DNA from: Pseudomonadota bacterium
GTDB lineage: Bacteria > Pseudomonadota > Gammaproteobacteria > Steroidobacterales > Woeseiaceae
Reading direction: 5' to 3'
DNA: 30,658 bases
Assembly: GCA_022360335.1 (NCBI GenBank)
Contig: JAKSCZ010000327.1
Location: forward strand, 1-30,658
Part shown: one piece after another, positions 193 through 27,035 of the stretch
How positions within the stretch are numbered: position 1 is the first letter of the stretch
Layout of the letters: each line of letters begins with the position of its first letter
Made by a program: the position numbers and the translations under genes
Notes under the pieces: model-generated
Databases searched by the model: none
What the model was told of the DNA's origin: nothing
The model's input: the letters and a program-made list of their open reading frames with translations, nothing else

Positions 193-1329
<1,137 letters not shown>

Positions 1330-1423: not shown

Positions 1424-2386
1424 TCAGGGCCCGGGCACGCCCTTGCCGGCCCGAAACTCGCGCGGCGTGACCCCCACGTACTTGCGAAACACGGTCGCGA
1501 AATACTGGCTCGTCGAGAAGCCCAGGCTGTGGGCGACCGCGGTAATCGACCGGTCCGGCTCCACCAGCAGGACCCTGGCTTGCTCGATGCGACGGCGCGT
1601 CCGGTACTCGGACGGCGTCATGCCGACCTCCTGCAGAAAACGCCGATGGAACGCGCTGATACTGAGCCCGGCCCGGCGCGCGACCATCGGCACGTCGAAC
1701 GAGCGGGCCAGGTTGAGATTGATCCAGTCCAGCGCCGCATCGATCTCGGGCGACGGGCGGCGATGCGCTTCGACCGGGCGCCTCGATTGCGCGTGCCGGC
1801 TGCTGCAACGCAGCACCTCGAGCAACAGGCGGTGCAGCACGGTGCGGGCATCGAGGAGGCCGAGGCGTTCCGGCGGGTCGCCGTCGCGGGTGCCGTGCAG
1901 TGCCAGCAAGCGCTCGAACAGCCGGCCGATTGCGCCGTTGCCGGGAAACACCGGGTTGTCGATGTTCGCGAACGCCGCCGCCAGCGACGCCGTCTCCTGT
2001 CGCGTCGTGCCGGGCAGCGGCTTGCCGCCGGCCGGGACGATCAGTTCGAGATAGAACCGCTGACACGGTTCCTTGACGTCGTCCTGGCCGCCGTGGACCT
2101 GTCCGGGCAGGGTGACGAAAACGTCGCCGCGACGCACCTCGAAACTCCGGTCGTCGACGCGCCATGACACCTGCCCGTGCACGAAATAGCTGATTTCGAT
2201 GCCCTCGTCGTGCTGGTGGGTCCGCATCCCGCCGCTCTCGGCGCGGTCCGGGCTCTCCCAGCCGATGCCGACGTGAGGATAGAGCAGGCAAGCCTTGAAC
2301 CAGTAGACCCTGCGTTGCGGCTCCTCGATGCGGATCCTGTCGGGCAGTTCGACGTGCACGAAGGCATGGTCGGCGGCGCGGCGCAT
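1424..2386 (-). CDS. AraC-family transcriptional regulator with N-terminal cupin sensing domain
   Basis: Cupin motifs HQHDEGIEISY and GDVFVTLPGQVHG. C-terminal double HTH (VPMVARRAGLSISAFHRRF; SITAVAHSLGFSTSQYFATVFRKYVGVTPREFR). ATG at 2386 preferred over the TTG at 2395 used by the ORF track. Confidence 0.93.
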   Translation of the reverse strand: MRRAADHAFVHVELPDRIRIEEPQRRVYWFKACLLYPHVGIGWESPDRAESGGMRTHQHDEGIEISYFVHGQVSWRVDDRSFEVRRGDVFVTLPGQVHGGQDDVKEPCQRFYLELIVPAGGKPLPGTTRQETASLAAAFANIDNPVFPGNGAIGRLFERLLALHGTRDGDPPERLGLLDARTVLHRLLLEVLRCSSRHAQSRRPVEAHRRPSPEIDAALDWINLNLARSFDVPMVARRAGLSISAFHRRFLQEVGMTPSEYRTRRRIEQARVLLVEPDRSITAVAHSLGFSTSQYFATVFRKYVGVTPREFRAGKGVPGP

Positions 2387-2448
2387 AATGTTCAAAATAC
2401 TATCCCATTTGAATACGAACGACAGGTCGAATCGGAGCCGCCTACTGT
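2387..2448 (+). promoter_or_regulatory. Candidate AraC-activated promoter for the SBP-permease operon: 38-bp motif copy 2 (2387-2424) plus -10 TACTGT (2443-2448)
   Basis: The plus strand reads AATGTTCAAAAT-ACTATCCC-ATTT-GAATACGAACGACA, then 18 nt, then TACTGT; TATATT at 2448-2453 is an alternative -10. The region is an AT-rich island in a GC-rich background. Confidence 0.6.
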
Positions 2449-2457
2449 ATATTCAGG

Positions 2458-4911
2458 ATGATGTCGACGCGGTCCTCATGGTTCAGTCGCGCACGCAGCT
2501 TGCGAAGGCACCTGCAACGCCTGGCCGTGCTGGCGGCAGCGGCCGTTCTGTGGACGTCGCCGCCGGCAGGCGCCGAGGTGATCCGCAACGCCGGTTACGA
2601 CGGCGAACGGACGGTGATCCGCTGGACCTTCTGGGGCGGCGAACGGACGGTGCGCACCTATCGCGAGGTCGCTGCCCGTTTCGTGGCACGGCATCCCGAC
2701 ATCGCGGTCGACGTCGTCATTCTCCCGTGGGGACAATACTGGACGAAGCTGCAAACGCAGGCCGCATCGGGACTCGCCCCCGACGTCATCTCCCTGGTCA
2801 GCGCGTCGGCCGGTGTCTGGATCAATCACGGGGCGCTGCTGCCGCTCGACGATTTCGTGGCCCGGTCCGGGCTCGACCTGACGCAATACTACCGGGGCGC
2901 CGTCGACAGCATGCGCTGGTCCGGCAGACAGTACGCGCTGCCGATCGAGGTCGCGGCCGGCGCGGTGGTCTACTCGATCGACCGACTCGAAGAGCTGGGC
3001 ATCCCGCAGGAGGAATGGCCTCCGGCGGACCGGCCGATGAACTGGCGCGACTTCAAGGCCCTGGCCCGCCAACTGACCTTGCGCGACGAGCGCGGCAACG
3101 TCGTGCAGTACGGCATCGGCAGCGGCGGCTGGTGGAGCGACATCCTGTTCGGCCTGTACGGCGGTACCTTCGTCGACCGGCGCGTGAATCCGACACGGCC
3201 CGACATCGCCGGCGACGAGGCGCTGGTCAGGGCCTTGATCGAGGTGTTCCAGCTCATGCACGCCGAGCGCGTGCAGGCGCCTGCGTCGGTGTTCCAGACC
3301 TCGGATTACTCCGGCGATCAGGTACTCCGGTCGAATCAGTTCGCGATGGCGTATCACGGTCCCTATGTCCTCGAGACGCTCCGCGAGAACGGCGTGCGCG
3401 TCGGCATAACGCCCATCCCGGCCGGCGACGTGCCCATTCAGTCGGTGAGCGTGAATGCCGTCGGCATCTACCGGGATTCGGAACACCCGGACGAGGCCTG
3501 GGAGTTCGTGCGCTTCCTCGCCTCGCCCGACGCGCAGGCGGTGATCACGAACACGCTGCGCAGCGTACCCGTCAGCCGGCTCGCCGAAGGCGCGTTCATC
3601 GACAACGCGTACGGCATAGAAGGCGTCGAGGCGTTTCTTTACGATATCGAGCGCGCGCGGCCGTTCCTCGCGCCGGCCGCGACCTACGTCGAGCGGGCGT
3701 ACCTGACCTGGCTCGAGCGCCTGGACTTCGCGCTCGATTACGAATACGAGCGACGCCTGCGGGCGATGCAGGCGCGTCACGATGTGATCGACGATGCGAC
3801 CTATACGGCGTTCGTCGACGAAATGCGCGGCGTGGTGGAGCGGAGGATCAGAAGCGAGTTGCCGGTCCTGGAGGCCGACCTGCTGTCCGGATTCGCCCGC
3901 ATGCAGCGGCAGGACGGATCGGCGGGCAGCAGAGTGCTCATGCCGATACTGCTCGTGTCGCTGTTCGGCGCGGCGTTTCTCCTGTACCTGCGCTACGTGC
4001 GGCGCCAGGAGGGGAGTACCCGGGCCATGGCGTCGGCGGCGACGAACCTGGCCGCCTTCGTGTGCCTGTCGCCGTGGCTGTTCGGCTTCGCGTTCTTCAC
4101 CCTCGGCCCGATCGTCGCATCGGTGTACCTGTCGTTCACCGAATGGAACATGATCTCGGAGCCGGTGTGGGTCGGTGCCCGGCATTATCGCGACCTGTTC
4201 AGCGACAAGTATTTCCTGATCGGCCTCGAGCGCACGGTCCGCTACGCCGCATTCGTCATCCCGATCTCGCTGTTCGGCGGCATTGCGACGGCCGGCCTCC
4301 TGACCAGCAACGTCAGGGGCGCCGATTCGTTCAAGGCGATCTTCTATTTCCCGTCGCTGTTCACCGGCGCGGCGGCGGCCGTGCTGTGGGTCAACATGTT
4401 TCACAAGGAGTACGGGATCGTCAACCGGATCCTGTCGACGTTCGGCGTGCTGCCCATCAACTGGCTCGACGAGTATCACGCCTTCTATACGGTCGTTCTG
4501 ATGAACGTGTTCTGGATCGGTGGAGCGACGATCATCTACTACGCCGGGATGAAGCAGATACCCCGCACCCTGTACGAAGCGGCCGAGATCGACGGCGCCG
4601 GGACCGTGCGGCGGTTCTTCAGCATCACGCTGCCGATGCTGTCGCCCGTTATCCTGTTCATGGTAATCATGACTACGATCGGTGCGTTCCAGGTCTTTAC
4701 GCCCGCCCTGTTTTTCGTCGACAACCCGTCGCAGGTGGGCGGACCGGGCGACTCCCTGCGATTCTATGCGGTCAATATCTACGACGAGGCCTTCAACAAC
4801 CTGCACATGGGCAAGGCCTGCGCCTGGGCGTTCGTGCTCTTCGTCATCATCTTCGCCGTGACGATGATCCAGATAAAACTGTCCAAGCGATTCGTCTATA
4901 CGGAAACCTGA
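2458..4911 (+). CDS. Fused carbohydrate ABC transporter solute-binding protein (family 1) and MalF-like permease
   Basis: N-terminal signal peptide ending near A-G-A, followed by an SBP_bac_1-like domain (WTFWGG, YWTKLQTQAASGLAPDVI, AVGIYRDSEHPDEAWEFVRFLASPDAQ). Then a helical linker, one extra TM (VLMPILLVSLFGAAFLLYL), and a CUT1 permease with SPWLFGF/YLSFTEW and EAA motif LYEAAEIDGAG...FFSITLPMLSP. Start at 2458 or 2461. Confidence 0.9.
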   Translation: MMSTRSSWFSRARSLRRHLQRLAVLAAAAVLWTSPPAGAEVIRNAGYDGERTVIRWTFWGGERTVRTYREVAARFVARHPDIAVDVVILPWGQYWTKLQTQAASGLAPDVISLVSASAGVWINHGALLPLDDFVARSGLDLTQYYRGAVDSMRWSGRQYALPIEVAAGAVVYSIDRLEELGIPQEEWPPADRPMNWRDFKALARQLTLRDERGNVVQYGIGSGGWWSDILFGLYGGTFVDRRVNPTRPDIAGDEALVRALIEVFQLMHAERVQAPASVFQTSDYSGDQVLRSNQFAMAYHGPYVLETLRENGVRVGITPIPAGDVPIQSVSVNAVGIYRDSEHPDEAWEFVRFLASPDAQAVITNTLRSVPVSRLAEGAFIDNAYGIEGVEAFLYDIERARPFLAPAATYVERAYLTWLERLDFALDYEYERRLRAMQARHDVIDDATYTAFVDEMRGVVERRIRSELPVLEADLLSGFARMQRQDGSAGSRVLMPILLVSLFGAAFLLYLRYVRRQEGSTRAMASAATNLAAFVCLSPWLFGFAFFTLGPIVASVYLSFTEWNMISEPVWVGARHYRDLFSDKYFLIGLERTVRYAAFVIPISLFGGIATAGLLTSNVRGADSFKAIFYFPSLFTGAAAAVLWVNMFHKEYGIVNRILSTFGVLPINWLDEYHAFYTVVLMNVFWIGGATIIYYAGMKQIPRTLYEAAEIDGAGTVRRFFSITLPMLSPVILFMVIMTTIGAFQVFTPALFFVDNPSQVGGPGDSLRFYAVNIYDEAFNNLHMGKACAWAFVLFVIIFAVTMIQIKLSKRFVYTET

Positions 4912-4914
4912 CCG

Positions 4915-6180
4915 ATGCAGCAGGCCGCCTCCAAGAAAGCAATCCTGTACGCGATGTTGTTCGGCGTGTCGGTGTTCCTGCTGTTCCCGTTCTACTGGGT
5001 ACTGATCTCGTCGGTCAAGACGGTCGACGGACTGTCCATGAATCCGCCGATGCTCTATCCGAGCGAGTTCCGCAACGTCGACCGTGAGCTCCCGGCGGCA
5101 GGGCGGATCGTCGAGGCGGGGGGTGACTCGTGGTTTCGTCTTGCGCGCTCGCCGGATCTCGGCGCGGAGCGCGCCGGCGCCGGAGAGCCCGGCGCATACT
5201 ACGTTCGTCTGAACGAGGATGCGCCGTCGCAGCTGACGCGATGGTGGTCCGACACCGCCGTGTCGCGGCTGTCTCCGGCGGCGGCGAGGATCACCTTCGC
5301 CGGCTCGGAGGTCGTCGCGCTGGAGACCGACGGGCGGCGGGTTGCCGTCGTCTCGCGGATGATCCGGCAGAGCGACAGCGGATTCGACGAGCTGCTGTTC
5401 GTCGTGCCGCCGGACGGCGAGGCCACGGAAATCGAGATTCTGAGCAACGTCGACTACAGCAGGGTCACGCGCTGGAAGACGCGTTTCGAGAACTACCCGG
5501 AGACCCTGCGCGGGCCCGAGGCGTCGTTCGGCGAAGAGTCTACGGGCTTTCTCAAGTTCTCGCGCAACAGCTTCTTCATCGGCGTCATGGCCGTCGTCGG
5601 GCAGCTCCTGTCCAGCAGCCTGGTTGCGTTTGCGTTCGCACGACTCAAATTCAGGGGACGCGAAGTCCTGTTCGTCCTGTTGCTCGCAACGATGATGATT
5701 CCCGGCCAGGTCACGCTGGTACCGCTGTTCTCGATCTACAAGTCCCTGGGGTGGATCGACACGTTCCTGCCGCTGATCGTTCCCCACTTCACGGCGGGTG
5801 CGTTCAACGTCTTTCTGCTGCGACAGTACATGCTGACGCTGCCCAGGGAGCTGGACGAGTCGGCGCAGATAGACGGCTGCGGTCCGCTGCGGACCTACTT
5901 TTTCGTCATCCTCCCGAACTGCGTTCCGGTGCTGATCGTCGTCGGCCTGTTCACGTTCGTCGCCACCTGGCAGGACGTTCTCGGCCCGCTGATCTACCTC
6001 GACAATCCCGAGTACCGCACGGTGACGCTGGGGCTCGAGTACTTCCGGTCTCCGTACGTCGACAACCGCCACCTGCTGATGACCGGAGCCGTGCTGGCCA
6101 TGTTGCCCGTCGCGGTGCTGTTCCTGTTCTTCCAGCGTTTCATCATTTCCGGCGTCGCGACATCCGGGATCAAGGCGTGA
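4915..6180 (+). CDS. Carbohydrate ABC transporter permease (MalG-like) with large periplasmic insertion
   Basis: FPFYWVLISSVK, ENY, NSFFI, AFAFARLKFRGR, EAA motif PRELDESAQIDGCG and ATWQDVLGPLIYL. At 421 aa it is longer than typical MalG-type proteins. Confidence 0.93.
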   Translation: MQQAASKKAILYAMLFGVSVFLLFPFYWVLISSVKTVDGLSMNPPMLYPSEFRNVDRELPAAGRIVEAGGDSWFRLARSPDLGAERAGAGEPGAYYVRLNEDAPSQLTRWWSDTAVSRLSPAAARITFAGSEVVALETDGRRVAVVSRMIRQSDSGFDELLFVVPPDGEATEIEILSNVDYSRVTRWKTRFENYPETLRGPEASFGEESTGFLKFSRNSFFIGVMAVVGQLLSSSLVAFAFARLKFRGREVLFVLLLATMMIPGQVTLVPLFSIYKSLGWIDTFLPLIVPHFTAGAFNVFLLRQYMLTLPRELDESAQIDGCGPLRTYFFVILPNCVPVLIVVGLFTFVATWQDVLGPLIYLDNPEYRTVTLGLEYFRSPYVDNRHLLMTGAVLAMLPVAVLFLFFQRFIISGVATSGIKA

Positions 6181-7103
6181 TCGCGCGGCGTACGGCCGGT
6201 CGCGTTCAGCCGATCTACGCCGGCATCGACGGCGGCGGGACACGTTGCCGCGCGTTGCTGGCAGACGCCCGGGGCGTCGAACTCGGCGCCGGCAGCGCCG
6301 GGCCGGCAAATCCGTTCCAGGATCCGCGGCAGGCGGCGGTCTCCGTCGTCGAGGCCGTCGAGGCCGCATTGAGCGACGCGGGTTGCGCGCCGTCGGAGAT
6401 CGGCAACGTCGTCGCCTGCGTCGGCCTGGCGGGCGCGAACGTCAAGTCCGCTTACGAGCGTATGGTCGATTGGGACCATCCGTTCTGCGACATGCAGCTG
6501 ACGACGGACGTCGAGATCGCCTGCCTGGGCGCTCACGGGGGCCTGGACGGCGGCGTCGTGGTAGTCGGGACCGGTTCGTCGGGCTGCGCGCTGGTCGACG
6601 GGGAATGGCATTACCTCGGGGGATACGGTTTTCCGTTTGCGGACAAGGGCAGCGGCGCATGGTTCGGGCTCGAGGCGATTCGCGCCGTATTGCTCGATTT
6701 CGACGAGCTCGGACCGCCGACGGCGCTGCGCGGCGCGCTGCGCGAGGAAACGGGCTTCGGACCGCTGGAACTCGTCGATTTCATGAGCGGCGCCAGGCCG
6801 GCGAGGTTCGCGAGTATTGCACCGCTCGTCGTCGATGCGGCCGGGAGCGGCGACGCCGTCGCCGCCGGGATACTGCAAGACGGCAGCGCGTACCTGTCGG
6901 ACCTCGTGGTGCGCCTCGTGGCTTTCGGCGCGCCGGCAGTCGCGCTGGTCGGCGGACTCAGCCGCAAGCTGCTGCCGTGGCTCGGCGAAGACGCGGCGGC
7001 TCGCGTCGTTCCCGCGCAGAAGTCGGCGGAGCACGGGGCGCTGTTGTCCGCCATGCACTCCGGTGAGGCGCAAACGAGGGAGCGGGGCGCCGGCGATTCC
7101 TGA
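6177..7103 (+). CDS. nagK: N-acetylglucosamine kinase (BadF/BadG/BcrA/BcrD ATPase family, Shewanella NagK type)
   Basis: GTG start overlaps the permease stop (GTGA). Motifs GIDGGGTRCRA, GPANP, VGLAG, TTDVEIACLGAHGGLDGGVVVVGTGS and GGYGFPFADKGSGAWFG match the gammaproteobacterial NagK pattern; nagA and nagB-II are in the same locus. Confidence 0.8.
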   Translation: MIARRTAGRVQPIYAGIDGGGTRCRALLADARGVELGAGSAGPANPFQDPRQAAVSVVEAVEAALSDAGCAPSEIGNVVACVGLAGANVKSAYERMVDWDHPFCDMQLTTDVEIACLGAHGGLDGGVVVVGTGSSGCALVDGEWHYLGGYGFPFADKGSGAWFGLEAIRAVLLDFDELGPPTALRGALREETGFGPLELVDFMSGARPARFASIAPLVVDAAGSGDAVAAGILQDGSAYLSDLVVRLVAFGAPAVALVGGLSRKLLPWLGEDAAARVVPAQKSAEHGALLSAMHSGEAQTRERGAGDS

Positions 7104-8343: not shown

Positions 8344-10881
8344 TTGACCACACTGTCGAAAGACCTGCCATCGAACGCGTTGCCGATTCCGGTCCGGCAG
8401 GACGGCCCGGCAAGCGTTCCGCTGCCGCGCCGCTGGTCGCTGCGCGAGGTCGGCACGGAGCGGTGGCTGCCGGCGACGGTGCCCGGCTGCAACTTCACGG
8501 ACCTCATGGAGGCGGGCGACATTGCCGACCCGTTCGTCGGCGACAACTTCCGCAGCCTGCAGTGGATCGAGGAGCGCGACTGGGAGTACCGGACGACCTT
8601 CTTCCTCGAGCCCGGCGCCGAGGACCTGCACGCCGACCTGGTGTTCGAGGGCCTCGACACCTATGCAACGGTCCGCCTCAACGGCGACGTCGTGCTGGAG
8701 TCGGACAACATGTTTCGCCGCTACCGGGTTTGCTGCGACGGACGGCTGCGTGCCGGCGACAACGAGCTGTCCGTGACGATCCGTTCGCCGCTTGCCGCGG
8801 TGCGGGACCGTCACGAACGCGGCGGAATCACCTATCCCGCCGAGAACGACGATTCCGAGGCCAAGCTGAGCGTCTACACGCGCAAGGCCGCCTGTCATTT
8901 CGGCTGGGACTGGGCGCCGCGACTCGTCTCGTCCGGGATCTGCCGCCCGGCCTACCTGGAAGTCGTCCCGCACTGCCGCATCGCCGACGCCGCGATGACC
9001 GTCGAGCGACTCGAGGACGACAGCGCGACGGTGAGCTTCGCCGTCGAGGTGGACGCGCGCGAAGCGATCGACGGCGTGGTGCGCGTCCTGCGCGCCGGCG
9101 CGGTCGCCGCCGAGGCGCCGCTGGCGATGCCGCCGGGCCGGGCGTCCCGGCGGCTGAGCGTCATCATCGACGAGCCGCGACGCTGGTGGCCTCGCGGCCT
9201 CGGGGAGGCGCACCTTTACGCGTTCGACTTCGAAGTGGTCGCGGGCGAGCGGACGCTGGCCGCGCTGCGGCGGCGATTCGGTCTGCGGACCATTGAATTC
9301 GTCAATCAGCCGGACGAGCACGGCAGGTCCTTCTATTTCAAAATCAACGGGCTGCCCGTTTTCATCCGCGGCGCCAACTACATTCCGCCCGACATGTTCG
9401 CGCATCGCGTGGACGATCGTCCTTACCGGCAGATTTTCGCGGACGTGGTGCAGGCGAACATCAACATGCTGCGGGTCTGGGGCGGCGGCGCGTACGAGTC
9501 GCCGGCGTTCTACGATCTCGCCGACGAACACGGCATTCTCGTCTGGCAGGACTTCATGTTCGCGAACACGCTCTATCCCGCCGACGAGGCGTTCCTCGCC
9601 AACGTCAGCGGCGAAGTCGCCGACGTCGTTCGCCGGCTGCGCCATCACGCCTGCCTGGCATTGTGGTGCGGCAACAACGAAATCGACATGGGCATCGCGT
9701 GCTGGGACTGGCCCGCGAAGTTCGCTTACACCGACGCGCAGTTCGCCGCCATGGTGTCCGCCAACCAGCGGCTCTTTCGGCAGCTCATCCCGGACCTCGT
9801 TGCGACGCACGATCCCGGGCGGGCCGACTGCTACCTGCCGTCTTCGCCGCAGAGTTTCTGGGAGAAACCGTCGACGGCCGGGCAGGGGAACAGTCACTAC
9901 TGGGGTGTCTGGCACGGCGGCGAGGAGTTCCCGGCCTACCGCGAGAACGTGCCGCGTTTCATGACGGAGTTCGGATTCCAGTCGTTTCCCGGCGCCGCGA
10001 CGGTCGCCCGTTACGCAGGGCCCGAAGACTGGGACGTCGACTCGGCCGCGATGCGGGCGCACCAGCGGCACGCCACGGGCAACGAACGCATTACCGAGGG
10101 GATACGGCGCCGCTTCGGCGTTGCGCCGGGGTTCGCGAACATGCTGTACCTGTCGCAGGTGCTGCAGGCCGAGGGGGTCAGGATCGGCATCGAGGCGCAC
10201 CGGCTCGCGCGGCCCTACTGCATGGGAACGGTCTACTGGCAGCTGAACGATGCCTGGCCGGGCGCGTCGTGGTCGGGCATCGACTATTTCGGCCGGTGGA
10301 AAGCCCTGCACTACGAGGTCAGGCGCAGCTTCGAGCCGACGACTCTGTGCTTCGAGGCCGGGCGCAAGACGGTGACGGCGCACGTCGTCAACGACCGCAA
10401 CGAACCGCTGGCCCTGACGGTCGATCTCGAGATTCTGCGGTTCTCGGGCGAACCGGTCTGGGCGGGCCGCGTCGAAGTCGCCGCGGCGGGCGGCTCGGTC
10501 ACCCGGGCCTGGCGCGGAGACGTTGCCGGCCTGGCGGGCGGCCGGCAGCTCGCAGACTGCGTCCTCGTCGGCAGACTGCGCGGCGGCGGCGTGGACGTCA
10601 CTCGCTGCCATTACTTCGGCGCCGTTCGCGGGCGGGCGCTCACCGACCCCGGCGTCGTCGCCGCCGTCGGCGACCGCAATACGCTGCGGCTCGAAGCGAC
10701 CGCATCGCTCGCGCGTTACGTCCGGGTTTCGCAGCGCTCGGACGAGACCGCGAACTTCTCCGACAATTTCTTCGATCTCCTGCCCGGCCGGCCCGTGGAG
10801 ATCGCGCCGCCGGAGGGCAGGTCCGTGCGCCTCTCCGGGCTGAAAATAACGAGCCTCGTCGACGCGCTGCGCGGCGCCTGA
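8344..10881 (+). CDS. GH2 beta-mannosidase, no evident signal peptide
   Basis: ATVPG, LVFEGLDTYA, RKAACHFGWDW, GANYIP, NMLRVWGGG, WQDFMFA, acid/base WCGNNE, nucleophile region FMTEFGFQSFP, and YWQLND...SWSGIDYFGRWKALHY. The TTG start is uncertain. Confidence 0.93.
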   Translation: MTTLSKDLPSNALPIPVRQDGPASVPLPRRWSLREVGTERWLPATVPGCNFTDLMEAGDIADPFVGDNFRSLQWIEERDWEYRTTFFLEPGAEDLHADLVFEGLDTYATVRLNGDVVLESDNMFRRYRVCCDGRLRAGDNELSVTIRSPLAAVRDRHERGGITYPAENDDSEAKLSVYTRKAACHFGWDWAPRLVSSGICRPAYLEVVPHCRIADAAMTVERLEDDSATVSFAVEVDAREAIDGVVRVLRAGAVAAEAPLAMPPGRASRRLSVIIDEPRRWWPRGLGEAHLYAFDFEVVAGERTLAALRRRFGLRTIEFVNQPDEHGRSFYFKINGLPVFIRGANYIPPDMFAHRVDDRPYRQIFADVVQANINMLRVWGGGAYESPAFYDLADEHGILVWQDFMFANTLYPADEAFLANVSGEVADVVRRLRHHACLALWCGNNEIDMGIACWDWPAKFAYTDAQFAAMVSANQRLFRQLIPDLVATHDPGRADCYLPSSPQSFWEKPSTAGQGNSHYWGVWHGGEEFPAYRENVPRFMTEFGFQSFPGAATVARYAGPEDWDVDSAAMRAHQRHATGNERITEGIRRRFGVAPGFANMLYLSQVLQAEGVRIGIEAHRLARPYCMGTVYWQLNDAWPGASWSGIDYFGRWKALHYEVRRSFEPTTLCFEAGRKTVTAHVVNDRNEPLALTVDLEILRFSGEPVWAGRVEVAAAGGSVTRAWRGDVAGLAGGRQLADCVLVGRLRGGGVDVTRCHYFGAVRGRALTDPGVVAAVGDRNTLRLEATASLARYVRVSQRSDETANFSDNFFDLLPGRPVEIAPPEGRSVRLSGLKITSLVDALRGA

Positions 10882-10935
10882 GCGGCGGACGGGCGTCGTA
10901 TTTGCGCAACACTCCGGATTGATCGTCGTTCGGGC

Positions 10936-10965
10936 TGGACTTCCCGAATGTAACCGGTTACATTC
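10936..10965 (+). promoter_or_regulatory. Sigma70-like promoter of the TBDR operon overlapped by a LacI-type operator
   Basis: TGGACT (10936-10941), 17 nt, then TACATT (10959-10964). The perfect 20-bp palindrome GAATGTAACCGGTTACATTC (10946-10965) covers the spacer and -10. Confidence 0.8.
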
Positions 10966-11026
10966 AATCGGCAGGACCAATAAATACCGTGCGCAAAGTG
11001 CGTTAATCATTTCGGGGGAAACGAAT

Positions 11027-13888
11027 ATGTTCCGTTCCAATTTCCGTTTGGCGAGTTTCCGATCCGTCGGCCGCTTCCTGTTGACGGCGGTCTTCGGCTT
11101 CGCGGCAGCGCTGCCTGCAGCGGCGCAAACCGACGACGAGGAGACGATCGAGGAAGTCGTCGTTCTCGGCATCCGGTCCTCGCTGCAGAGCAACATCGAC
11201 CAGAAACGGCTTGCCGATTCGATCGTCGATTCGATCAACGCCGAGGACATCGGCAAATTTCCCGACAAGAACGTCGCCGACGCGCTGCAGCGCGTACCCG
11301 GCGTCTCGATCACCAGAGACGGCGGCGAGGGCGCACGTGTCGACGTTCGCGGCCTGGGATCGAGCCTGACGTTCACGCAGCTCAACGGCAATTACATTGC
11401 CGCCGCCGCCGGCGAACCGACGCGTTCGTTCCTGTACACGCTGTTGCCGTCGAACATGATCGCACGCGCCGAAGTGCTCAAGTCGCCGCAGGCTAAGTAC
11501 GACGAAGGCGGCGTCGGAGGCACCATCGTCCTGCACACGCACAAGCCGCTCGACCGGGACCGCAACAGCGGGTTCTTCACGGTCGAAGCGACGTATGCCG
11601 ACGTGACCGAGGATTTCGAACCGCAGTACAGCGGCAGCTTCTCGTGGAAGAACGACGACGAGACCTTCGGCGTCCTGGTCGGTTATACGCAGCAGTATCG
11701 TCTCAACCGGACCGTCGGTGCGAACACCGAGAACTGGAACTACGTGGCCGACCAGGCGACGTTCGACGCCATGATCGCCTCGGGCGCCCTGGCGGAGGGC
11801 ACGCAGCGCCGCGATCCGATCACCGACGACGCCGGCAACGGCACGACCTATTCCGGGTTCTACATGCCGACGGCCGTCGTCGGCATCGTCGAGGAGCAGG
11901 ATCGCGAGCGCCAGGGTATCCAGCTCAGTACCCAGTGGCGTCCGACCGAAGCGCTCGAAATCGGACTGGACTACTTCCGCTTCGAGCTCGGCAACGACTT
12001 CGAGCGTTACCGTCTGGTCCTGCCCGAATGGAACCTGGGCAACGCGATCGCCCCCGGCGGCGTCGTGCTCGATTCGGACGGCGATTCGCTCGTCAGCCTG
12101 ACGACGGTCGCGCCTGCCGGAACCCGCCTGTCGTCTCCACAGTACGCCGGCGACCGGGTCAGGCGCGACGCGGTGTCGGACACGTTCACGCTCAACCTGT
12201 CGTACGACTTCGACGCCTGGAGCATCGACGCAAAGGTCGGCAGGACCGACTCGGACGGCGGCGACCGCGACCAGTTCTTCAGCGCCATCTACTCGACCAA
12301 CCAGTGGGATTCCGCCAACCCGGTCGTCAATTCGGTGAACAGCTGGACCTGGGACTTCCGCGGTAACGAAGGCGTAACGATCACGAGCAGCGAGGACCTC
12401 GGGGCGATCCAGAACAACCCCGATGCGATTGCGCTCGACAACTTCACGTCGAGTTACGCGGACAGCACCGACGAGGAGACCTACGGCCAGATCGACCTGT
12501 CGTTCGACGTGGACTGGGGCGTCGTCTCCTCGCTCGACGCCGGCGTGAAGCTCCGTTCGCACGAGATCACGCGCCGTGTGCGTACGCAGAAGTGGGACGA
12601 CGCCAACGATCCGGCGGACTGCTCGCGGTTCATTCCCTGGGATCCGCCCGGCTCGCCCTGCCCCGGCTGGATCGGCACCGGTAATTTCGTATCGGATCTC
12701 TCGCTGCATCCCACCGGCCAGACGATCGCGAACCATTTCCTAAGGTCGAGCCCGATGGACAACATCGCCGGCGACGCGCTGAACGTCGCGCCGTTCTCCG
12801 TGTTCGACTGGGACAGCTACCGCTCCTGGCTGATCGGACGCTTCGGTCCGTCGAACATCGAAACGGAGGCGTTCAACGTTTACGAGGTGAGCGAGGACAT
12901 CACGGCGGGATACGTGCAGGCGAATTTCTCGACCGAGCGTATCCGCGGCAACCTGGGCGTCCGGGTCGTCGAGACCGACGTCGACACGCTGGTCTTCAAC
13001 CGCACCTCCGCTCCCGGCGCGCCGACCGACGAGTTCGTGACGCGCTCGGGCAGTTCATCGGACGTACTGCCGAGCCTGAACCTGGCATACGACGTCACCG
13101 ACGATCTGCTGCTGCGTTTTGCGGCGTCGAACGTCATGGCGCGGGTGCCTTACGGGAGTCTCGGCGGCGCCGAGGTACTGATCTTCGTTCCGGCGAGCCC
13201 GGGCGTTCCCGAGGAATGGAACGGCCAGGGCGGCAATCCCGACCTGAAACCCTACGAGGCGACCGCGTATGACCTGTCGCTCGAGTGGTACTATGCCGAT
13301 GCGTCGGCGGCCGGCATTGCGATTTATCGCAAGGACGTCGACAACTTCATCGTTACGGCCAATACCGCGGTGCAAAGAGAAGTCGACGGCGAGATCGTCA
13401 CCATCGATCCGTTCACGACGTCGGTCAACGGTTCCGACGTGAAGCAGGACGGCGTGGAGGTGTTCGTGCAACACGCGTTCGACAACGGCTTCGGCTTCAT
13501 CGCCAACTACACGTGGAACGACAGCGAACAGGCGGAAATCTCGGTCGACGGACAGGTGATCGGCAGAACCTCGGTGGAGGGCGTCGCCGATTTCCAGACG
13601 AACCTCGTGGGCTACTACGAGAACGACCGCTGGAGCGTGCGCGCGTCGTACAACAAGATCGGCGACCGCCCGCTCGGCCTGAGCCGCGGCCTGGAGGTCG
13701 TTGCGGAGGAGTACGACCAGATCGACATCAATGCATCGTATAACTTCAGTGAGAACCTGAACGCGACGCTCTCCGTCATCAATCTGACCGAGAACATTTC
13801 GCGCTCGTATCACGGTGAGCCCAATCGGCCCGCCGGCGTCGTATATCCGGGCCGTCGGGCGTACGTTGGCGTAAACTACAAGTTCTGA
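11027..13888 (+). CDS. TonB-dependent receptor (carbohydrate-type)
   Basis: SD GGGGGA then ATG 11027, rather than the ORF-track start at 10919. Signal peptide, TonB-box-like TIEEVVVLG, plug SINAEDIGKFPDKNVADALQRVPGVSI, GNPDLKPYEA, and a C-terminal beta-strand ending YVGVNYKF. Confidence 0.96.
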   Translation: MFRSNFRLASFRSVGRFLLTAVFGFAAALPAAAQTDDEETIEEVVVLGIRSSLQSNIDQKRLADSIVDSINAEDIGKFPDKNVADALQRVPGVSITRDGGEGARVDVRGLGSSLTFTQLNGNYIAAAAGEPTRSFLYTLLPSNMIARAEVLKSPQAKYDEGGVGGTIVLHTHKPLDRDRNSGFFTVEATYADVTEDFEPQYSGSFSWKNDDETFGVLVGYTQQYRLNRTVGANTENWNYVADQATFDAMIASGALAEGTQRRDPITDDAGNGTTYSGFYMPTAVVGIVEEQDRERQGIQLSTQWRPTEALEIGLDYFRFELGNDFERYRLVLPEWNLGNAIAPGGVVLDSDGDSLVSLTTVAPAGTRLSSPQYAGDRVRRDAVSDTFTLNLSYDFDAWSIDAKVGRTDSDGGDRDQFFSAIYSTNQWDSANPVVNSVNSWTWDFRGNEGVTITSSEDLGAIQNNPDAIALDNFTSSYADSTDEETYGQIDLSFDVDWGVVSSLDAGVKLRSHEITRRVRTQKWDDANDPADCSRFIPWDPPGSPCPGWIGTGNFVSDLSLHPTGQTIANHFLRSSPMDNIAGDALNVAPFSVFDWDSYRSWLIGRFGPSNIETEAFNVYEVSEDITAGYVQANFSTERIRGNLGVRVVETDVDTLVFNRTSAPGAPTDEFVTRSGSSSDVLPSLNLAYDVTDDLLLRFAASNVMARVPYGSLGGAEVLIFVPASPGVPEEWNGQGGNPDLKPYEATAYDLSLEWYYADASAAGIAIYRKDVDNFIVTANTAVQREVDGEIVTIDPFTTSVNGSDVKQDGVEVFVQHAFDNGFGFIANYTWNDSEQAEISVDGQVIGRTSVEGVADFQTNLVGYYENDRWSVRASYNKIGDRPLGLSRGLEVVAEEYDQIDINASYNFSENLNATLSVINLTENISRSYHGEPNRPAGVVYPGRRAYVGVNYKF

Positions 13889-13956: not shown

Positions 13957-15669
13957 ATGCGCCGATTACCGACCACGATTCGCGTGCCTCGAAACCGTCG
14001 CCGGATCGCAGCCATGCTGCTGGCGACGGCGTTGTCGGGGTGCGGCGGCGGCGGCGGTTCGTCCGACCCCCCGCAGACGCAGACGCCGCCGCCGCCGGGC
14101 GGCGGCACCGCCGGTGTCGGCGCTTCCCCGACCTACGTCGATGCGACTCCCGGCAGCGGTATCGCCTACGTCCACGGCTATCTCGTGCCGACGGGGTCGG
14201 AGATGGAGTGGCAGGGCGGCGGCGTCGCGGCGGGCGACTACGACAACGACGGCGACGTCGATCTCTTCGTCGTCAGGGGCGACGTCGGTCCCAACCTGCT
14301 GTATCGCAACGAAGGCAATCTCGTGTTCGTCGACGTCGCGGCATCGGCGGGTCTCGCCTATACGAAGCCGGGGGACCAGAACGAGCGCCTGAGCGGACCG
14401 ACGTTTGCGGATATGGACGGCGATTCCGACCTGGACCTGTTCGTGGCCGGTTTCGAGGGCAGTCCGTCGTTCGTCTTCGAGAACAACGGCGACGGCACGT
14501 TCGCCGACGTCAGCCTCGCGTCGGGCATCCGCTCGATGCTGGCGGAGAATTCGGTCTCGGCGGCCTTCGGCGACTACGACAGGGACGGCGATCTGGATCT
14601 GTTCGTATCGCACTGGGGTACGCCGAGGGACAACACGAATCCGGGCGACACGGAACACCTCTGGCGCAACGTCAGCGACGCGGCCGGCATACGTTTCGAG
14701 AACGTCAGCGTCCCGTCCGGTATCTCCGCGACCATCATCCTGAACAGGCCGGGCGTCCTGGGCGCCGACCGCGACTACACTTTTGCGCCGACGTTCGCCG
14801 ACGTCAACGACGACGGTTTCCCCGACATCCTGAGCGTGGCCGATTTCGCCTCGACGCGCGTGTTCATCAACAATCAGGACGGTACGTTCGTCGACGTCAC
14901 CGATGAGGACGTCATCATCGACGACTCCGGCATGGGATCCGCGGTGGGCGACTACGACAACGACGGCGACCTGGACTGGTTCGTCAGCTCGATTCTGAAT
15001 TCGACCATCGGCTCGGTGATCGGAAATCGCCTGTACCGCAACAACAACGGCGTTTTCGAGGACGCGACGGACGAGGCGGGCGTCGAGGACGGAAGCTGGG
15101 GCTGGGCGGCGTGTTTCCTGGACATGAACAACGACCAGCACCTCGACATATTCCACGTGAACGGCTGGCGGGACCAGATACCGGAAACGAATTTCTCGTC
15201 GGACTACAGCCCGGTGTTCGTGTCGCAAGGCGACGGGACCTTCGACAACGTAGCGGACGAGGCCGGGATCGTCGACCAGGAGCAAGGCCGGGGCCTGGTG
15301 TGCGCCGACTTCGACCAGGACGGGGACGTCGACCTCTTCATCACGCACCGGGACGAGACCAATTCCGCAACGCTGTACCGCAACGACACCGACAACGGGA
15401 ACTGGCTCGCCGTCAAACTGCAGGGCGCGAACGGCAATACCGAAGCGGCGGGCGCGCGCATAGAGATCGTCGCGGGCGGGACGCGCCAGTTGCGCGAAAT
15501 CGTCATCGGCAGCAACTATACCTCGCAGAACCCGACCGAGCAGTTCTTCGGACTCGCGTCCCATGCGCAGGTGGACACACTCACGATCACGTGGCCCGAC
15601 GGCACCCGGGAAACGCACTCCGGCGTGGCCGCCAATCAGCGGCTCACGTATTCGCAAGCACAGCCCTGA
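13957..15669 (+). CDS. CRTAC1-family lipoprotein: FG-GAP/VCBS beta-propeller plus ASPIC/UnbV domain
   Basis: Lipobox LSGC after an Arg-rich N-region, then a Gly/Pro linker. Seven DxDxDG-type Ca-binding repeats and a C-terminal NWLAVKLQG...GARIEI...SNYTSQN...FFGL...ITWPDG ASPIC/UnbV pattern. Confidence 0.9.
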   Translation: MRRLPTTIRVPRNRRRIAAMLLATALSGCGGGGGSSDPPQTQTPPPPGGGTAGVGASPTYVDATPGSGIAYVHGYLVPTGSEMEWQGGGVAAGDYDNDGDVDLFVVRGDVGPNLLYRNEGNLVFVDVAASAGLAYTKPGDQNERLSGPTFADMDGDSDLDLFVAGFEGSPSFVFENNGDGTFADVSLASGIRSMLAENSVSAAFGDYDRDGDLDLFVSHWGTPRDNTNPGDTEHLWRNVSDAAGIRFENVSVPSGISATIILNRPGVLGADRDYTFAPTFADVNDDGFPDILSVADFASTRVFINNQDGTFVDVTDEDVIIDDSGMGSAVGDYDNDGDLDWFVSSILNSTIGSVIGNRLYRNNNGVFEDATDEAGVEDGSWGWAACFLDMNNDQHLDIFHVNGWRDQIPETNFSSDYSPVFVSQGDGTFDNVADEAGIVDQEQGRGLVCADFDQDGDVDLFITHRDETNSATLYRNDTDNGNWLAVKLQGANGNTEAAGARIEIVAGGTRQLREIVIGSNYTSQNPTEQFFGLASHAQVDTLTITWPDGTRETHSGVAANQRLTYSQAQP

Positions 15670-15687: not shown

Positions 15688-17418
15688 ATGTGTGCAGCCG
15701 AACGCATTCTCATCCCGTGGATGCTGTCGGCGGCGCTGTGCGCGTGTTCGGCCGATCCGCCGCCGGCGGCGGAGCCGCCGCCCAGCCGCGCCCCGTTCCT
15801 GCTGACGCTCGACGAACTGCGCGGCTGGTCGCCGGACGGCCCGCTGGCCGACGCGCGCAACGTGTCCCGTGTCGTTCTCGCGGAGAGGTTCGCCGATCCG
15901 CAATCGCAATTGAACGGGGATCTCCCGGCCGATGCACGGGTGCTCATCGCGCCGGACGGGATCGACGGCCTGGGCAACTACCTCGATGAGCAGGAACGAT
16001 TCAACCTCTACACATTCACGCACTGGTCGTCGGTCGACGTCCTGAACTGGTTCGGCGGTACGGCCGAGCTGACCGTCAGCATCCCGTCCCGCCCCTGGGT
16101 CGAGGCGGCGCACCGCAACGGCGTCAAGGTCCTCGGGACCGTGTTCTTCGCGCCCGAAGCCTGGGGCGGCGGGGAGGAGGCGGCGATCGGGTTCCTGCGC
16201 CGCGACGGCGCGGGCGGTTTTCCGAGCGCACTCAGGTTGATCGAGATCGCCGAGTACTACGGATTCGACGGCTGGCTGGTGAACCAGGAGACGGATCTCT
16301 CGGGCGCCGTCGAGCGGGCCGGCGACGAGTTTCTCGATTTCATGGCCTTCATGGTCGCGCAGCGACCCGAGGGGATGGAGATCCACTGGTACGACTCGAT
16401 GCTTCCCGGCGGGAGAGTCGATTGGCAGAACGAGCTCAACGGCAACAACGCCAGGTTCCTCCAGGACGGAAACCGCAAGACGGCCGACGCGATGTTCGTC
16501 AACTACTGGTGGCGTCGGGACATGGTGCGCGCCAGCGCCCGGACTGCGCGGGGACTCGGGCGATCGCCGTTCGACGTGTTCACGGGGGCCGATCTGTGGC
16601 CCGGCCGGCGCGCACAGGCGCTCGACCGGATGCCGCGGTGGCTCGACGAGCTGTCGGGAGAAGACGGCAGCCCGATGACGTCGATCGCATTGTTTGCGAA
16701 CAACTTCAATTTTACGTTCCGCGGCAGCGACGAGTACGCCGCGGCGTCCGCGTTTGCCGACGACGCGAACGATGTCGCCGCATTCTACGCGTCGGCGGAT
16801 CGTCTGTTCGGCGGCGACGACCGCAATCCCGCCGTCCGGGACCCGGCCGGTTCCTGGCCCGGGATTGCGAGCCGTATCCCGGCGCGGTCCGTCCTCGATC
16901 GGCTGCCGTTCGCGACCGGTTTCAGTACCGGTCACGGCCGGTTCAGGGCCAGTGAGGGCGCAATCGTCGCCGGCCCGTGGCACGACATGGCCGCGCAGGA
17001 CCTCCTGCCGAACTGGCAGTTCGCGGTGAGCGGCAACCCGGAGACACGGGTCTCTTTCGATTTCGACCGGGCCTGGGAGAAGGGAAACTCCCTGCGACTG
17101 GACGCCAGCCCGCGAAACGGTGCGGCGTCCGTGCCGCTGTTCAAGACACGATTCGAGGCGGAGGCCGGCCTGCACGTCGACGTCGTCTACTCGCTGGCGG
17201 CCGACTACGACGGCGCCGGCCTGTGGCTCGAAACGGCTGCCGGGGAGGTCCGGCGCATCGCGCTCGAGAACACGGGCGGCGCGTGGCGGCAGAAGACGGC
17301 AAGCGTGCGCAGCGACGCCGCCGTGATTCGCATCGGCGTCGATCTGGCCCGGGCCGACGTTCGCGGCGCGTCGCTGTACCTCGGTCGTCTGGCGATCGGA
17401 CAGGCGGGCGGCGCTTGA
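15688..17418 (+). CDS. GH85 endo-beta-N-acetylglucosaminidase, predicted lipoprotein
   Basis: AAHRNGVKVLGTVFF, catalytic YYGFDGWLVNQET (N-x-E), HWYDSM, NELNGNN and DAMFVNYWW. N-terminal LCAC lipobox-like motif followed by a Pro-rich linker. Confidence 0.92.
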   Translation: MCAAERILIPWMLSAALCACSADPPPAAEPPPSRAPFLLTLDELRGWSPDGPLADARNVSRVVLAERFADPQSQLNGDLPADARVLIAPDGIDGLGNYLDEQERFNLYTFTHWSSVDVLNWFGGTAELTVSIPSRPWVEAAHRNGVKVLGTVFFAPEAWGGGEEAAIGFLRRDGAGGFPSALRLIEIAEYYGFDGWLVNQETDLSGAVERAGDEFLDFMAFMVAQRPEGMEIHWYDSMLPGGRVDWQNELNGNNARFLQDGNRKTADAMFVNYWWRRDMVRASARTARGLGRSPFDVFTGADLWPGRRAQALDRMPRWLDELSGEDGSPMTSIALFANNFNFTFRGSDEYAAASAFADDANDVAAFYASADRLFGGDDRNPAVRDPAGSWPGIASRIPARSVLDRLPFATGFSTGHGRFRASEGAIVAGPWHDMAAQDLLPNWQFAVSGNPETRVSFDFDRAWEKGNSLRLDASPRNGAASVPLFKTRFEAEAGLHVDVVYSLAADYDGAGLWLETAAGEVRRIALENTGGAWRQKTASVRSDAAVIRIGVDLARADVRGASLYLGRLAIGQAGGA

Positions 17419-24383: not shown

Positions 24384-25670
24384 ATGCGCTACGAGTCGAC
24401 GCTCGAGTTTGCGAAGGCGCAGGACGCGTCGGACCCGCTGCAAGCGTATCGCGACCGTTTTCACTTCCCGTCGTCCGATGCCGATCGACTCGTGTACTTC
24501 ACGGGGCATTCGCTCGGCCTGCAGCCGAAGCCGCTGCGGGCGGCCGTCGAGTTCGAACTCGGCGAGTGGGCGAAATACGGCGTCGAGGGGCATTTTCGCG
24601 CGGCGAACCCGTGGTACGGCTACCACGAGCTGCTGACCCCGCCCATGGCGGACATCGTCGGGGCGAAGGCATCCGAGGTCGTCTGCATGAACTCGCTGAC
24701 GACCAATCTCCACCTGCTGTTCGTTTCCTTCTATCGCCCGACGAAGGCGCGTTACAAGATCGTTTCCGAGGCGAAGATGTTCCCCTCGGATCGCTACCTG
24801 CTCGAGACCCAGGCGAGGTTCCACGGTTTCGATCCCGACGAGGCGATCGTCGAGGTCGGGCCCCGGGACGGCGAACGGCTGATCCGCGAAGAGGACATCC
24901 TCGCGGCGATCGACGCCAATGCCGATGAACTCGCGCTCGTCTTTTTCGGCGGTGTCAACTACTTTACGGGCCAGCTGTTCGATATGCCGCGCCTGACCGG
25001 GGCCGCGCACGCCGCCGGCGCCCCGGCCGGTTTCGACCTTGCCCACGCGGCCGGCAACGTGCCGCTTGCGCTGCACGACTGGGGCGTCGATTTCGCAGCC
25101 TGGTGTTCCTACAAATACCTGAACTCGAGTCCGGGCAACGTGGGCGCCGTCTTCGTGCACGAGAAGCACGGCCGGAGTTTCGATCTGCCGCGATTCGGCG
25201 GCTGGTGGGGGCACGACAAGGCGACGCGCTTCGATATGGAGCCCGGGTTCCGGCCGATGGAAGGCGCCGAAGGCTGGCAGCTGAGCAACGTGCCGGTCCT
25301 GGGGATGGCGGCGATGAAGGCATCGCTCGACATCTTTGCCGAGGCCGGCATGCCCGCGCTGCGCAGGAAAAGCGAGACGCTGACCGGCTATCTCGAGTTC
25401 ACTATCGATCGGCTCGCAAAGGACTGTCCCGACGCCGGGATCGGCCTCATCACGCCGCGCAACCCCGCGGAACGGGGTTGCCAGATCTCGATCGACGTCG
25501 CAGGGAGGGGAAAGAAGCTGTGTGACGATCTGATCGCGGCCGGCGTATTCGCCGACTTTCGCGAGCCCTGCATCATCCGCATGGCGCCGGTGCCGCTCTA
25601 CAATTCCTTCGAGGACGTGCAGGCGTTCGGCAGTATCATGCGGGGCTTGCTGGGGCAGGAGGCTGCGTAG
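24384..25670 (+). CDS. kynU: Kynureninase
   Basis: [41 protein letters not shown]-lysine motif [13 protein letters not shown] and WQLSN. Confidence 0.96.
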
Positions 25671-27035
25671 ATGAGCCGGGAGTCTTTCACCGTCGTCGGG
25701 GGCGGGCCCGTCGGGACGCTGCTCGCGATTCTGCTGGCACGCCGCGGATACGAGGTCGGGCTCTACGAAGGCCGGCCCGACTCGCGGCGGACGAGCCTCT
25801 ACGAGGGCAGGTCGATCAACATCGCGCTGTCCGATCGCGGCTGGACCTCGCTCGAGAAGATCGGTATCGGCGACGACGCCAGGGAGCGGGCCATCCCGAT
25901 GACTCACCGCGCCGTCCACGGCGTCGGCGGCGACGTCGCGGCGCTGCCGTACGGCAGGGAAGGGGATGCCATCTGGTCGGTGTCGAGGAGCGGTATCAAC
26001 GAGCACCTGCTGGACGTCGCGGACGCGGAGCCCAACATTGCGATGCAGTTCGGACACCGGCTGATCGACGTCGATTTCGAAACGGCGACGACCACTTTCT
26101 GGGTCAACAATACGGGCAAAGTCGTGGTCGGGGCCGACTACGCGTTCGGCGCCGACGGCGCGCACTCGAAGGTCCGGCGTCTGGCGCACGACCTGCCGCG
26201 CTTCAGTTACAGCCAGACCTGCATGCCGCAAAGCTACATCGAGCTCAACATACCCGCGAATGCGGACGGCACGCACAAGCTCGAAACGAACGCGCTGCAC
26301 ATCTGGCCGCGCAAGGATTTCATGCTGATCGCGTTGCCGAATGCCGACGGCACGTTCACCTGCACGCTGTTCCTGAACTACTCGGGCGATCCGTCGTTCG
26401 AGTCCTTGCAGGAACGGCCGGACGTCGAGGCGTTTTTCGAAGCCAACTTCCCGGATGCGATGGACTGTCTCGAGGAGCCCGTGGACGCGTTCCTGGCGAA
26501 GACGCCGTCTCCCCTGTTCCTCGTGCGGGTGTTTCCGTGGTCGTTCAACCGCAAGGTCGGGCTCATCGGCGACGCGGCCCATGCGATCGTGCCGTTCTAC
26601 GGGCAGGGCATGAACTGCGGTTTCGAGGACTGCGCCGAGCTCGATGCCCTGATCGCGGCCCACGATCACGACTGGGACCGGATCTTCCCCGCCTACGAAA
26701 ACGCCCGCAAGCCCAACGGCGATGCCATCGCCGAATTGTCCAGGCGCAATTTCGTCGAGATGAGCGAGCTGTCCGGCGACCGGCTGTTCCGGCTGCGCAA
26801 GATGATCGAGGCCAAGTTCAGCCGGCGCCACCCGGACCTGTGGACGCCGCTCTACTCGATGGTCACGTTCTCGCCCGACGTGCCGTACTCGGAGGCCCTG
26901 CGCGTCGGCGACGAGCAGAACCGGGTGATGGAGAAGATCATGGCAATGCCGGGCATCGAGGAGGACTGGGACGACGAAAAGCTCATGGAGCGACTGTTTT
27001 CGCTCGCATCCGAGACACTTGGGGACAGGCAGTGA
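25671..27035 (+). CDS. kmo: Kynurenine 3-monooxygenase
   Basis: GGGPVG FAD motif, GRSINIALSDRG, GADGAHSKVR, LHIWPR...MLIALPNADGTFTCTLF, GDAAHAIVPFYGQGMNCGFED and PLYSMVTFS. Confidence 0.95.
   Translation: MSRESFTVVGGGPVGTLLAILLARRGYEVGLYEGRPDSRRTSLYEGRSINIALSDRGWTSLEKIGIGDDARERAIPMTHRAVHGVGGDVAALPYGREGDAIWSVSRSGINEHLLDVADAEPNIAMQFGHRLIDVDFETATTTFWVNNTGKVVVGADYAFGADGAHSKVRRLAHDLPRFSYSQTCMPQSYIELNIPANADGTHKLETNALHIWPRKDFMLIALPNADGTFTCTLFLNYSGDPSFESLQERPDVEAFFEANFPDAMDCLEEPVDAFLAKTPSPLFLVRVFPWSFNRKVGLIGDAAHAIVPFYGQGMNCGFEDCAELDALIAAHDHDWDRIFPAYENARKPNGDAIAELSRRNFVEMSELSGDRLFRLRKMIEAKFSRRHPDLWTPLYSMVTFSPDVPYSEALRVGDEQNRVMEKIMAMPGIEEDWDDEKLMERLFSLASETLGDRQ

Follow-up and report, generated by a model that had tools for sequence, protein, structure and literature searches.

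A sugar-binding protein fused to the MalF-like permease of a predicted CUT1-type ABC importer in a Woeseiaceae bacterium and its relatives

We analyzed a stretch of 30,658 nucleotides (hereafter the window; contig JAKSCZ010000327.1, assembly GCA_022360335.1) from a Pseudomonadota bacterium of the family Woeseiaceae, in which a single open frame at positions 2458–4911 of the forward strand encodes 817 residues, with one stop codon at its end. The best overall explanation, to which we assign a probability of about 80%, is that this protein is a membrane subunit of a CUT1-type (MalEFGK-like) ATP-binding cassette (ABC) importer, whose binding protein forms a permanent N-terminal extension of a MalF/UgpA-like permease. 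This explanation is carried by the architecture of the protein, the conservation of that architecture, the logic of its topology and an extra domain on the partner permease, each of which is directly supported. The architecture is real, conserved and widespread, with more than 100 full-length homologs of about 790–825 aa and 42–85% identity, all containing both Pfam domains, obtained from a search of 5.8 billion protein clusters.

The N-terminus of the fusion is a Sec-type signal peptide (residues 1–39, positions 2458–2574), read directly from the sequence, and its cleavage would fall after AGA and before a glutamate. The homologs also carry short signal peptides of the same Sec type with AXA-like sites, and their mature N-terminus, E-V/I-x-E-N, is conserved. 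A Tat-type export signal (SLRRHLQ) was considered and rejected, with RR-type motifs found in just five of the 103 homologs. The signal peptide is followed by a periplasmic sugar-binding domain of the CUT1 oligosaccharide-binding type (residues 40–440, positions 2575–3777), which has the family-1 extracellular solute-binding protein fold: Pfam SBP_bac_1 was matched at residues 66–361 (E 4e-34), the PDB profile matches were AbnE (6rjy, 1.7e-55), Lmo0181 (5f7v) and CpMnBP1 (4r9f), and Foldseek gave target TM-scores of 0.66–0.78 against oligosaccharide-binding proteins. A helical linker (residues 441–488, positions 3778–3921) leads to an extra membrane helix, TM0, with a short basic cytoplasmic loop (RYVRRQ...; residues 489–518, positions 3922–4035), where the Kyte-Doolittle hydropathy peaks at 2.45 over residues 493–511 and is followed by RYVRRQ and then by six permease helices. 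The MalF/UgpA-like core containing these six helices (positions 4036–4911) was identified by Pfam BPD_transp_1 at residues 610–805 (E 1.3e-12), by an NCBIfam UgpA-like permease match at residues 532–811, the MalF match being weaker, and by PDB matches to SugA (7cad), AlgM1 and MalF, and it retains the EAA coupling motif EAAEIDGAG at residues 707–715 (positions 4576–4602). Translation, Pfam, NCBIfam and hydropathy thus bear out a sequence-only reading of this DNA, which had described one 817-aa frame with a signal peptide, a binding protein, an extra membrane helix and a MalF-like permease. The same reading had held that the added helix gives the correct out-to-in topology for a MalF/UgpA-type permease that begins with its N-terminus inside, and this is upheld by the homologs: TM0 is hydrophobic in 103 of the 103 aligned fused sequences, and the next 12 residues have a mean net charge of +2.

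The AlphaFold2 model of the fusion, built from an alignment of 103 sequences, has a mean predicted local distance difference test score (pLDDT) of 90.3 and a predicted template-modelling score of 0.86, and it places the binding domain up to about residue 408, two long helices at 409–440 and 446–482, TM0 at 489–518 and the permease core from a helix at 527–558. The profile alignment with AbnE, which is a free binding protein, covers profile positions 31–433 and is estimated to reach about residue 440 of the fusion, and the helix at 409–440 is probably the last helix of the binding protein itself. For this reason the linker comes to about 48 aa (441–488), and of the charged helical linker of about 70 aa that had been proposed earlier, the helical character stands and the length does not. 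The linker is 48 aa long in 79 of 94 main-family homologs (range 44–48), while its mean identity is 29% and no strongly conserved motif was seen in it beyond M456. Such a conserved length, together with a pLDDT of 95–98 over the linker helix, suggests a structural strut of fixed length and not a floppy tether.

The possibility that the long frame is an artefact, whether from a chimeric assembly or from a binding-protein gene and a permease gene run together by a sequencing error or by the recent loss of a stop codon, has to be considered, since the window contig comes from a fragmented metagenome-assembled genome (MAG) of 2.9 Mb in 656 contigs, and since a binding-protein gene directly precedes the MalF-type gene in canonical CUT1 operons, as in the unfused loci L011–L013 and L015 among the loci read (loci are numbered with L throughout). 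This explanation is already refuted in practice. The single frame, the extra helix and the length of the linker recur in more than 100 independent homologs, and TM0 is not explained by a simple loss of a stop codon. The junction was also crossed by Logan contigs from four coral-reef metagenome runs, all of one study and possibly including the source sample, which are free of indels over positions 3300–4231; of their 19 substitutions, 12 are synonymous, and none introduces a stop. A stop and restart between the two domains in close relatives, which would have spoken for two separate genes, was looked for and did not appear, so the earlier claim of a genuine fusion holds.

The fused homologs span at least eight phyla. 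In a scan of one genome per species, the fused gene was found in MAGs of Woeseiaceae, Rhodothermales, Rubrivirga, Bacteroidota, Latescibacterota, Melioribacteraceae, Armatimonadetes and Verrucomicrobiota, while other sources name Planctomycetota, Phycisphaerae and Ignavibacteriales among the carriers, and about 35 clusters of at least 50 members in the ESM Atlas carry the same domain pair. The relative from another Woeseiaceae genome (L001) is 78% identical and its locus is fully syntenic. A search with the binding domain only found no close free-standing version of it, the nearest true free binding protein being 28% identical; a 659-aa match that could have been taken for a free binding protein was rejected as a truncated or scrambled fused member, with its permease match ending after about residue 603. 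Unfused systems appear only at about 30% identity (in Bacillota, Spirochaetales, Pseudothermotoga and Victivallales), and they have ordinary binding-protein, MalF-like and MalG-like genes. The source MAG itself has only two family-1 binding proteins, the fused one and a free one on another contig (C534, about 5090–6789), where the free protein lies beside a permease in the canonical CUT1 manner, so that fused and unfused designs occur in one cell.

Directly after the fusion gene lies the gene of a MalG-like partner permease of 421 aa, here called PERM2 (positions 4915–6180, forward strand), whose ATG follows the stop codon of the fusion by 3 nucleotides (TGA-ccg-ATG). PERM2 contains Pfam BPD_transp_1 at residues 237–412 and the EAA-type motif ESAQIDGCG, so that both permeases keep the coupling motif, and it aligns with MalG (2r6g_G) at a VIA-align Z of 22.5 but is about 140 aa longer. 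Between its first and second transmembrane helices (residues 33–215, positions 5011–5559) PERM2 has an all-beta periplasmic domain of about 150–180 aa, with strands at residues 50–187 and an AlphaFold2 pLDDT of about 96. This domain looks like an orphan: Pfam gave no match even at E 10, a profile of 41 sequences found no sequence match in the PDB, and phmmer, run exhaustively over 1.84 billion representatives, returned its own family only, plus three marginal matches. Structural comparison with 48,161 PDB chains gave partial SH3/Tudor-like matches at best (Z about 5), and with no Pfam or PDB sequence match beside them, a carbohydrate-binding-module-like identity found no support. A PERM2-type permease of about 410–440 aa comes directly after the fusion gene in the window, as it does in 13 of the 14 related loci that were examined, while the partner MalG-like proteins of unfused relatives, and of two loci read from a second fused group described below, are of normal size (274–288 aa).

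In a review (PMC6906923), the P1 loop of MalG and the P2 loop of MalF are described as contacting the N-lobe of MalE. The PERM2 insert occupies the position of the P1 loop, and a large loop is absent from the fused MalF-like subunit. Since MalG of E. coli contacts MalE through this same loop, the beta domain of PERM2 may help to dock or cradle the tethered binding domain.

The window thus contains two different permeases, one MalF/UgpA-like and the other MalG/UgpE-like, each with an EAA motif, as expected of the CUT1 type. It also contains a MalK-type ATPase with a C-terminal OB/TOBE regulatory domain (positions 193–1329, reverse strand; Pfam ABC_tran, OB_MalK and TOBE_2), which has the same position in the syntenic L001 locus and, on the basis of that synteny, likely serves the fusion importer. 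In the working that we propose, the Sec signal peptide would export the binding domain to the periplasm, the 48-residue helical strut would lead from there into TM0, and TM0 would bring the chain back to the cytoplasm, so that the six-helix permease core could begin with its N-terminus inside as usual. The fusion would pair with PERM2 and most probably also with a MalK-type ATPase dimer, and ATP-driven uptake of sugar is predicted. Because the two membrane subunits differ, each complex would have exactly one tethered binding domain. A further step, in which the binding domain stays with the translocator throughout, the rigid strut sets its reach, the beta domain of PERM2 takes the cradle role that the P2 loop of MalF has in E. 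coli and the complex cycles with a single, permanently docked receptor, is less likely than not.

At the opposite extreme, the fusion could be a delivery device only, with the binding domain cut off after insertion and acting as an ordinary free periplasmic binding protein. A free domain can work, since the review PMC6906923 describes additional stimulation of the Bdellovibrio transporter when soluble MalE domain was supplied, yet by the same account the fusion fixes receptor and transporter at a 1:1 ratio in that protein. In the window family, the confidently predicted helix and the conserved linker length suggest a structural strut and not a cleavable spacer, and the lack of a strongly conserved linker motif beyond M456 speaks in the same direction, so that release of the domain seems quite improbable.

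A CUT1 binding domain fused to a MalF-type subunit is already known from Bdellovibrio. The Bdellovibrio MalE-MalF/MalG/MalK2 maltodextrin importer was reportedly characterised by Licht et al. in 2019 (Res Microbiol 170:1-12). The sequence-only reading had named OpuA and GlnPQ as the characterised fusions and had set them against CUT1 importers with a free binding protein, which is incomplete, since the maltose transporter of Bdellovibrio bacteriovorus, with MalE fused to MalF, is described as purified, assayed and active in the review PMC6906923. Like the window fusion, it is of the CUT1 type, has a single binding domain placed first on the MalF-type chain and belongs to a two-membrane bacterium. 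However, its binding domain (PDB 6ffl) is absent from the phmmer matches of the window fusion (P0001) at E 1e-5 and from those of P0117, a member of the second fused group described below, at 1e-10, and Foldseek ranks 6ffl 43rd for the window fusion at 16% identity, which is a match at the level of the fold only. The Bdellovibrio system also stands in a maltodextrin context, whereas the window fusion is accompanied by a glycoside hydrolase family 85 (GH85) enzyme, a GH2 beta-mannosidase and N-acetylglucosamine (GlcNAc)-catabolic genes, and the window system is set further apart by the orphan beta domain of its MalG-like partner. What appears new is a lineage with no detectable sequence relation to the Bdellovibrio binding domain, a linker of nearly invariant length (48 aa) and a partner with a beta domain.

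With MalEFGK2 of E. coli and the mycobacterial LpqY-SugABC (TC 3.A.1.1), the window system shares MalF/SugA-like and MalG/SugB-like permeases with EAA motifs, the bilobed fold of the binding protein and an ATPase of the MalK type that ends in a regulatory domain. In those systems, however, the binding protein is free or lipid-anchored, while here it forms one chain with the permease, and MalF has the large periplasmic domain P2, while here a large periplasmic domain belongs to the MalG-like subunit. OpuA and GlnPQ have identical membrane subunits, which gives two or four small binding domains of the amino-acid or osmolyte type per complex. The window system has two adjacent and different permease genes, of which one carries a single oligosaccharide-type domain of about 400 aa that matches sugar-binding proteins only, together with the added TM0. 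What the window fusion has in common with OpuA and GlnPQ of Lactococcus lactis is a binding domain tethered to the membrane domain in a type I ABC importer (PMC8025302).

The usual account of type I ABC importers relies on a binding protein that diffuses freely, and whether the receptor must ever leave the transporter during the import cycle is a long-running question for MalE. If the receptor is permanently docked, the fusion would offer a natural way to test whether binding proteins have to dissociate in the ABC import cycle, and one tethered receptor with a fixed-length strut and a dedicated partner domain would suit structural and single-molecule studies; any advantage that tethering gives the cell is an inference. 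Of most interest are the predicted strut of fixed length and the orphan domain that the partner permease carries in the periplasm. Annotation is affected as well: genes of this kind are labelled either "solute-binding protein" or "permease", so that the fusion is overlooked when transporters are counted in Planctomycetota, Armatimonadota, Rhodothermota and similar groups.

A second fused group (P0107–P0120) was also obtained, which is about 30% identical to the window family and belongs to Planctomycetota where the phylum is named. Its members have the same order of an N-terminal leader, binding domain, linker, TM0 and permease, whereas the linker plus last helix measure about 50 aa against 78 in the window family, several N-termini look like uncleaved anchors, and the partner MalG is normal-sized (286–288 aa) in the two loci read, against the beta-domain PERM2 of the window family. 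In these two loci (L023, 8001–12367, and L024, 8001–11254), one of them from a Planctomycetota MAG, the fused gene is found with GH13, GH77 and MalK genes, and in one with a glycogen-type phosphorylase; they look like a MalE-MalF-style fusion for alpha-glucans. In a tree of the permease core, rooted on distant MalG-like paralogs and sampling eight unfused sequences, both fused groups form one clade apart from the unfused sequences (SH-like approximate likelihood ratio test, 96). This thinly sampled tree would be compatible with a single ancient fusion and a later switch of substrate.

The gene neighbourhood of the fusion offers some indication of the cargo. An AraC-family regulator (positions 1424–2395, reverse strand; Pfam HTH_18 and AraC_binding) is divergent from the fusion gene, and an AraC gene is also upstream of the fusion in L001 and L020. 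Downstream, all on the forward strand, lie a BadF/BadG-type, GlcNAc-kinase-like sugar kinase (6245–7103, its start codon being uncertain; Pfam BcrAD_BadFG on the frame 5130–7103), a GH2 beta-mannosidase (8344–10881; Pfam Glyco_hydro_2_N2, Mannosidase_ig and Ig_mannosidase) with no signal peptide visible in its N-terminus, a TonB-dependent outer-membrane receptor (10919–13888; Pfam Plug and TonB_dep_Rec_b-barrel), and an exported GH85 endo-beta-N-acetylglucosaminidase (15688–17418; Pfam Glyco_hydro_85, 7.6e-72) with a lipoprotein-like N-terminus (...LSAALCAC...). The cluster in the window also encodes NagA and a SIS-domain protein, both GlcNAc-catabolic genes. GH85 enzymes cleave between the two core GlcNAc residues of N-glycans, and the beta-mannosidase is apparently cytoplasmic, which would mean that the imported sugar retains the bond of mannose (Man) in Man-beta-1,4-GlcNAc. 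From this neighbourhood we give slightly better than even odds that the cargo, for the clade of the window, is a beta-mannoside of the N-glycan core, for instance Man-beta-1,4-GlcNAc or a small Man(n)GlcNAc. For the source organism, the outer-membrane receptor and the GH85 enzyme would then be linked to a plausible path by which N-glycan core fragments cross the inner membrane.

Several points weigh against the proposal, in its docking role as well as in its cargo. The homolog in L025 (9001–11397), 55% identical, is the sole exception among the 14 loci in having no PERM2-type gene within 9 kb, and the docking role of the beta domain is proposed solely from the position of the loop and the co-occurrence with the fusion. 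As for the cargo, L019, L022, L026 and L027 are without a glycoside hydrolase nearby, L025 has only a weak Melibiase-like neighbour, and no alpha-mannosidase is present in the window. Because several relatives are without a nearby glycoside hydrolase, the substrate call may hold only for the clade of the window; and because the window is without an alpha-mannosidase, a larger Man(n)GlcNAc cargo would be without the expected catabolic enzymes here.

It could therefore be that the architecture is as described while the cargo is another oligosaccharide, not derived from N-glycans, and that the fusion stands in this locus only incidentally. Many relatives are indeed isolated two-gene units with no glycoside hydrolases, and the closest solved binding proteins take ligands as diverse as arabino-oligosaccharides, cycloalternan, manno-oligosaccharides and cello-oligosaccharides. 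Against this, the pair adjoins a GH2 beta-mannosidase, GH85 or GH130 in six loci: the GH2 enzyme in L001 and L018 as well as in the window, which has GH85 too, GH85 in L004, and GH130 in L021 and, about 10 kb off, in L020. The GlcNAc-catabolic genes in the same cluster of the window also speak against another cargo, which we hold to be unlikely, though by no means negligible.

The sequence-only reading had also suggested that a tethered binding protein could help to catch bulky oligosaccharides which come in through the TonB-dependent receptor. An outer-membrane receptor beside the pair of fusion and PERM2 was found in three loci only (the window, L001 and L018), and none within the fetched flanks of the other loci read. 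In L018 (10001–19074), from Rubrivirga, a SusC/SusD-like pair comes directly after the fused importer pair, with a GH2 beta-mannosidase and LacI upstream, which makes this locus a cluster resembling a polysaccharide utilization locus with an ABC importer at the inner membrane. In the window, a lipoprotein with FG-GAP repeats and an ASPIC/UnbV domain (13957–15669, forward strand) lies between the TonB-dependent receptor and the GH85 gene, and it holds the position that a SusD-like protein has in Bacteroidota. Further downstream, at positions 24384–27877 of the forward strand, kynureninase, an FAD-dependent monooxygenase and tryptophan 2,3-dioxygenase form a block of the kynurenine pathway that is unrelated to the sugar locus.

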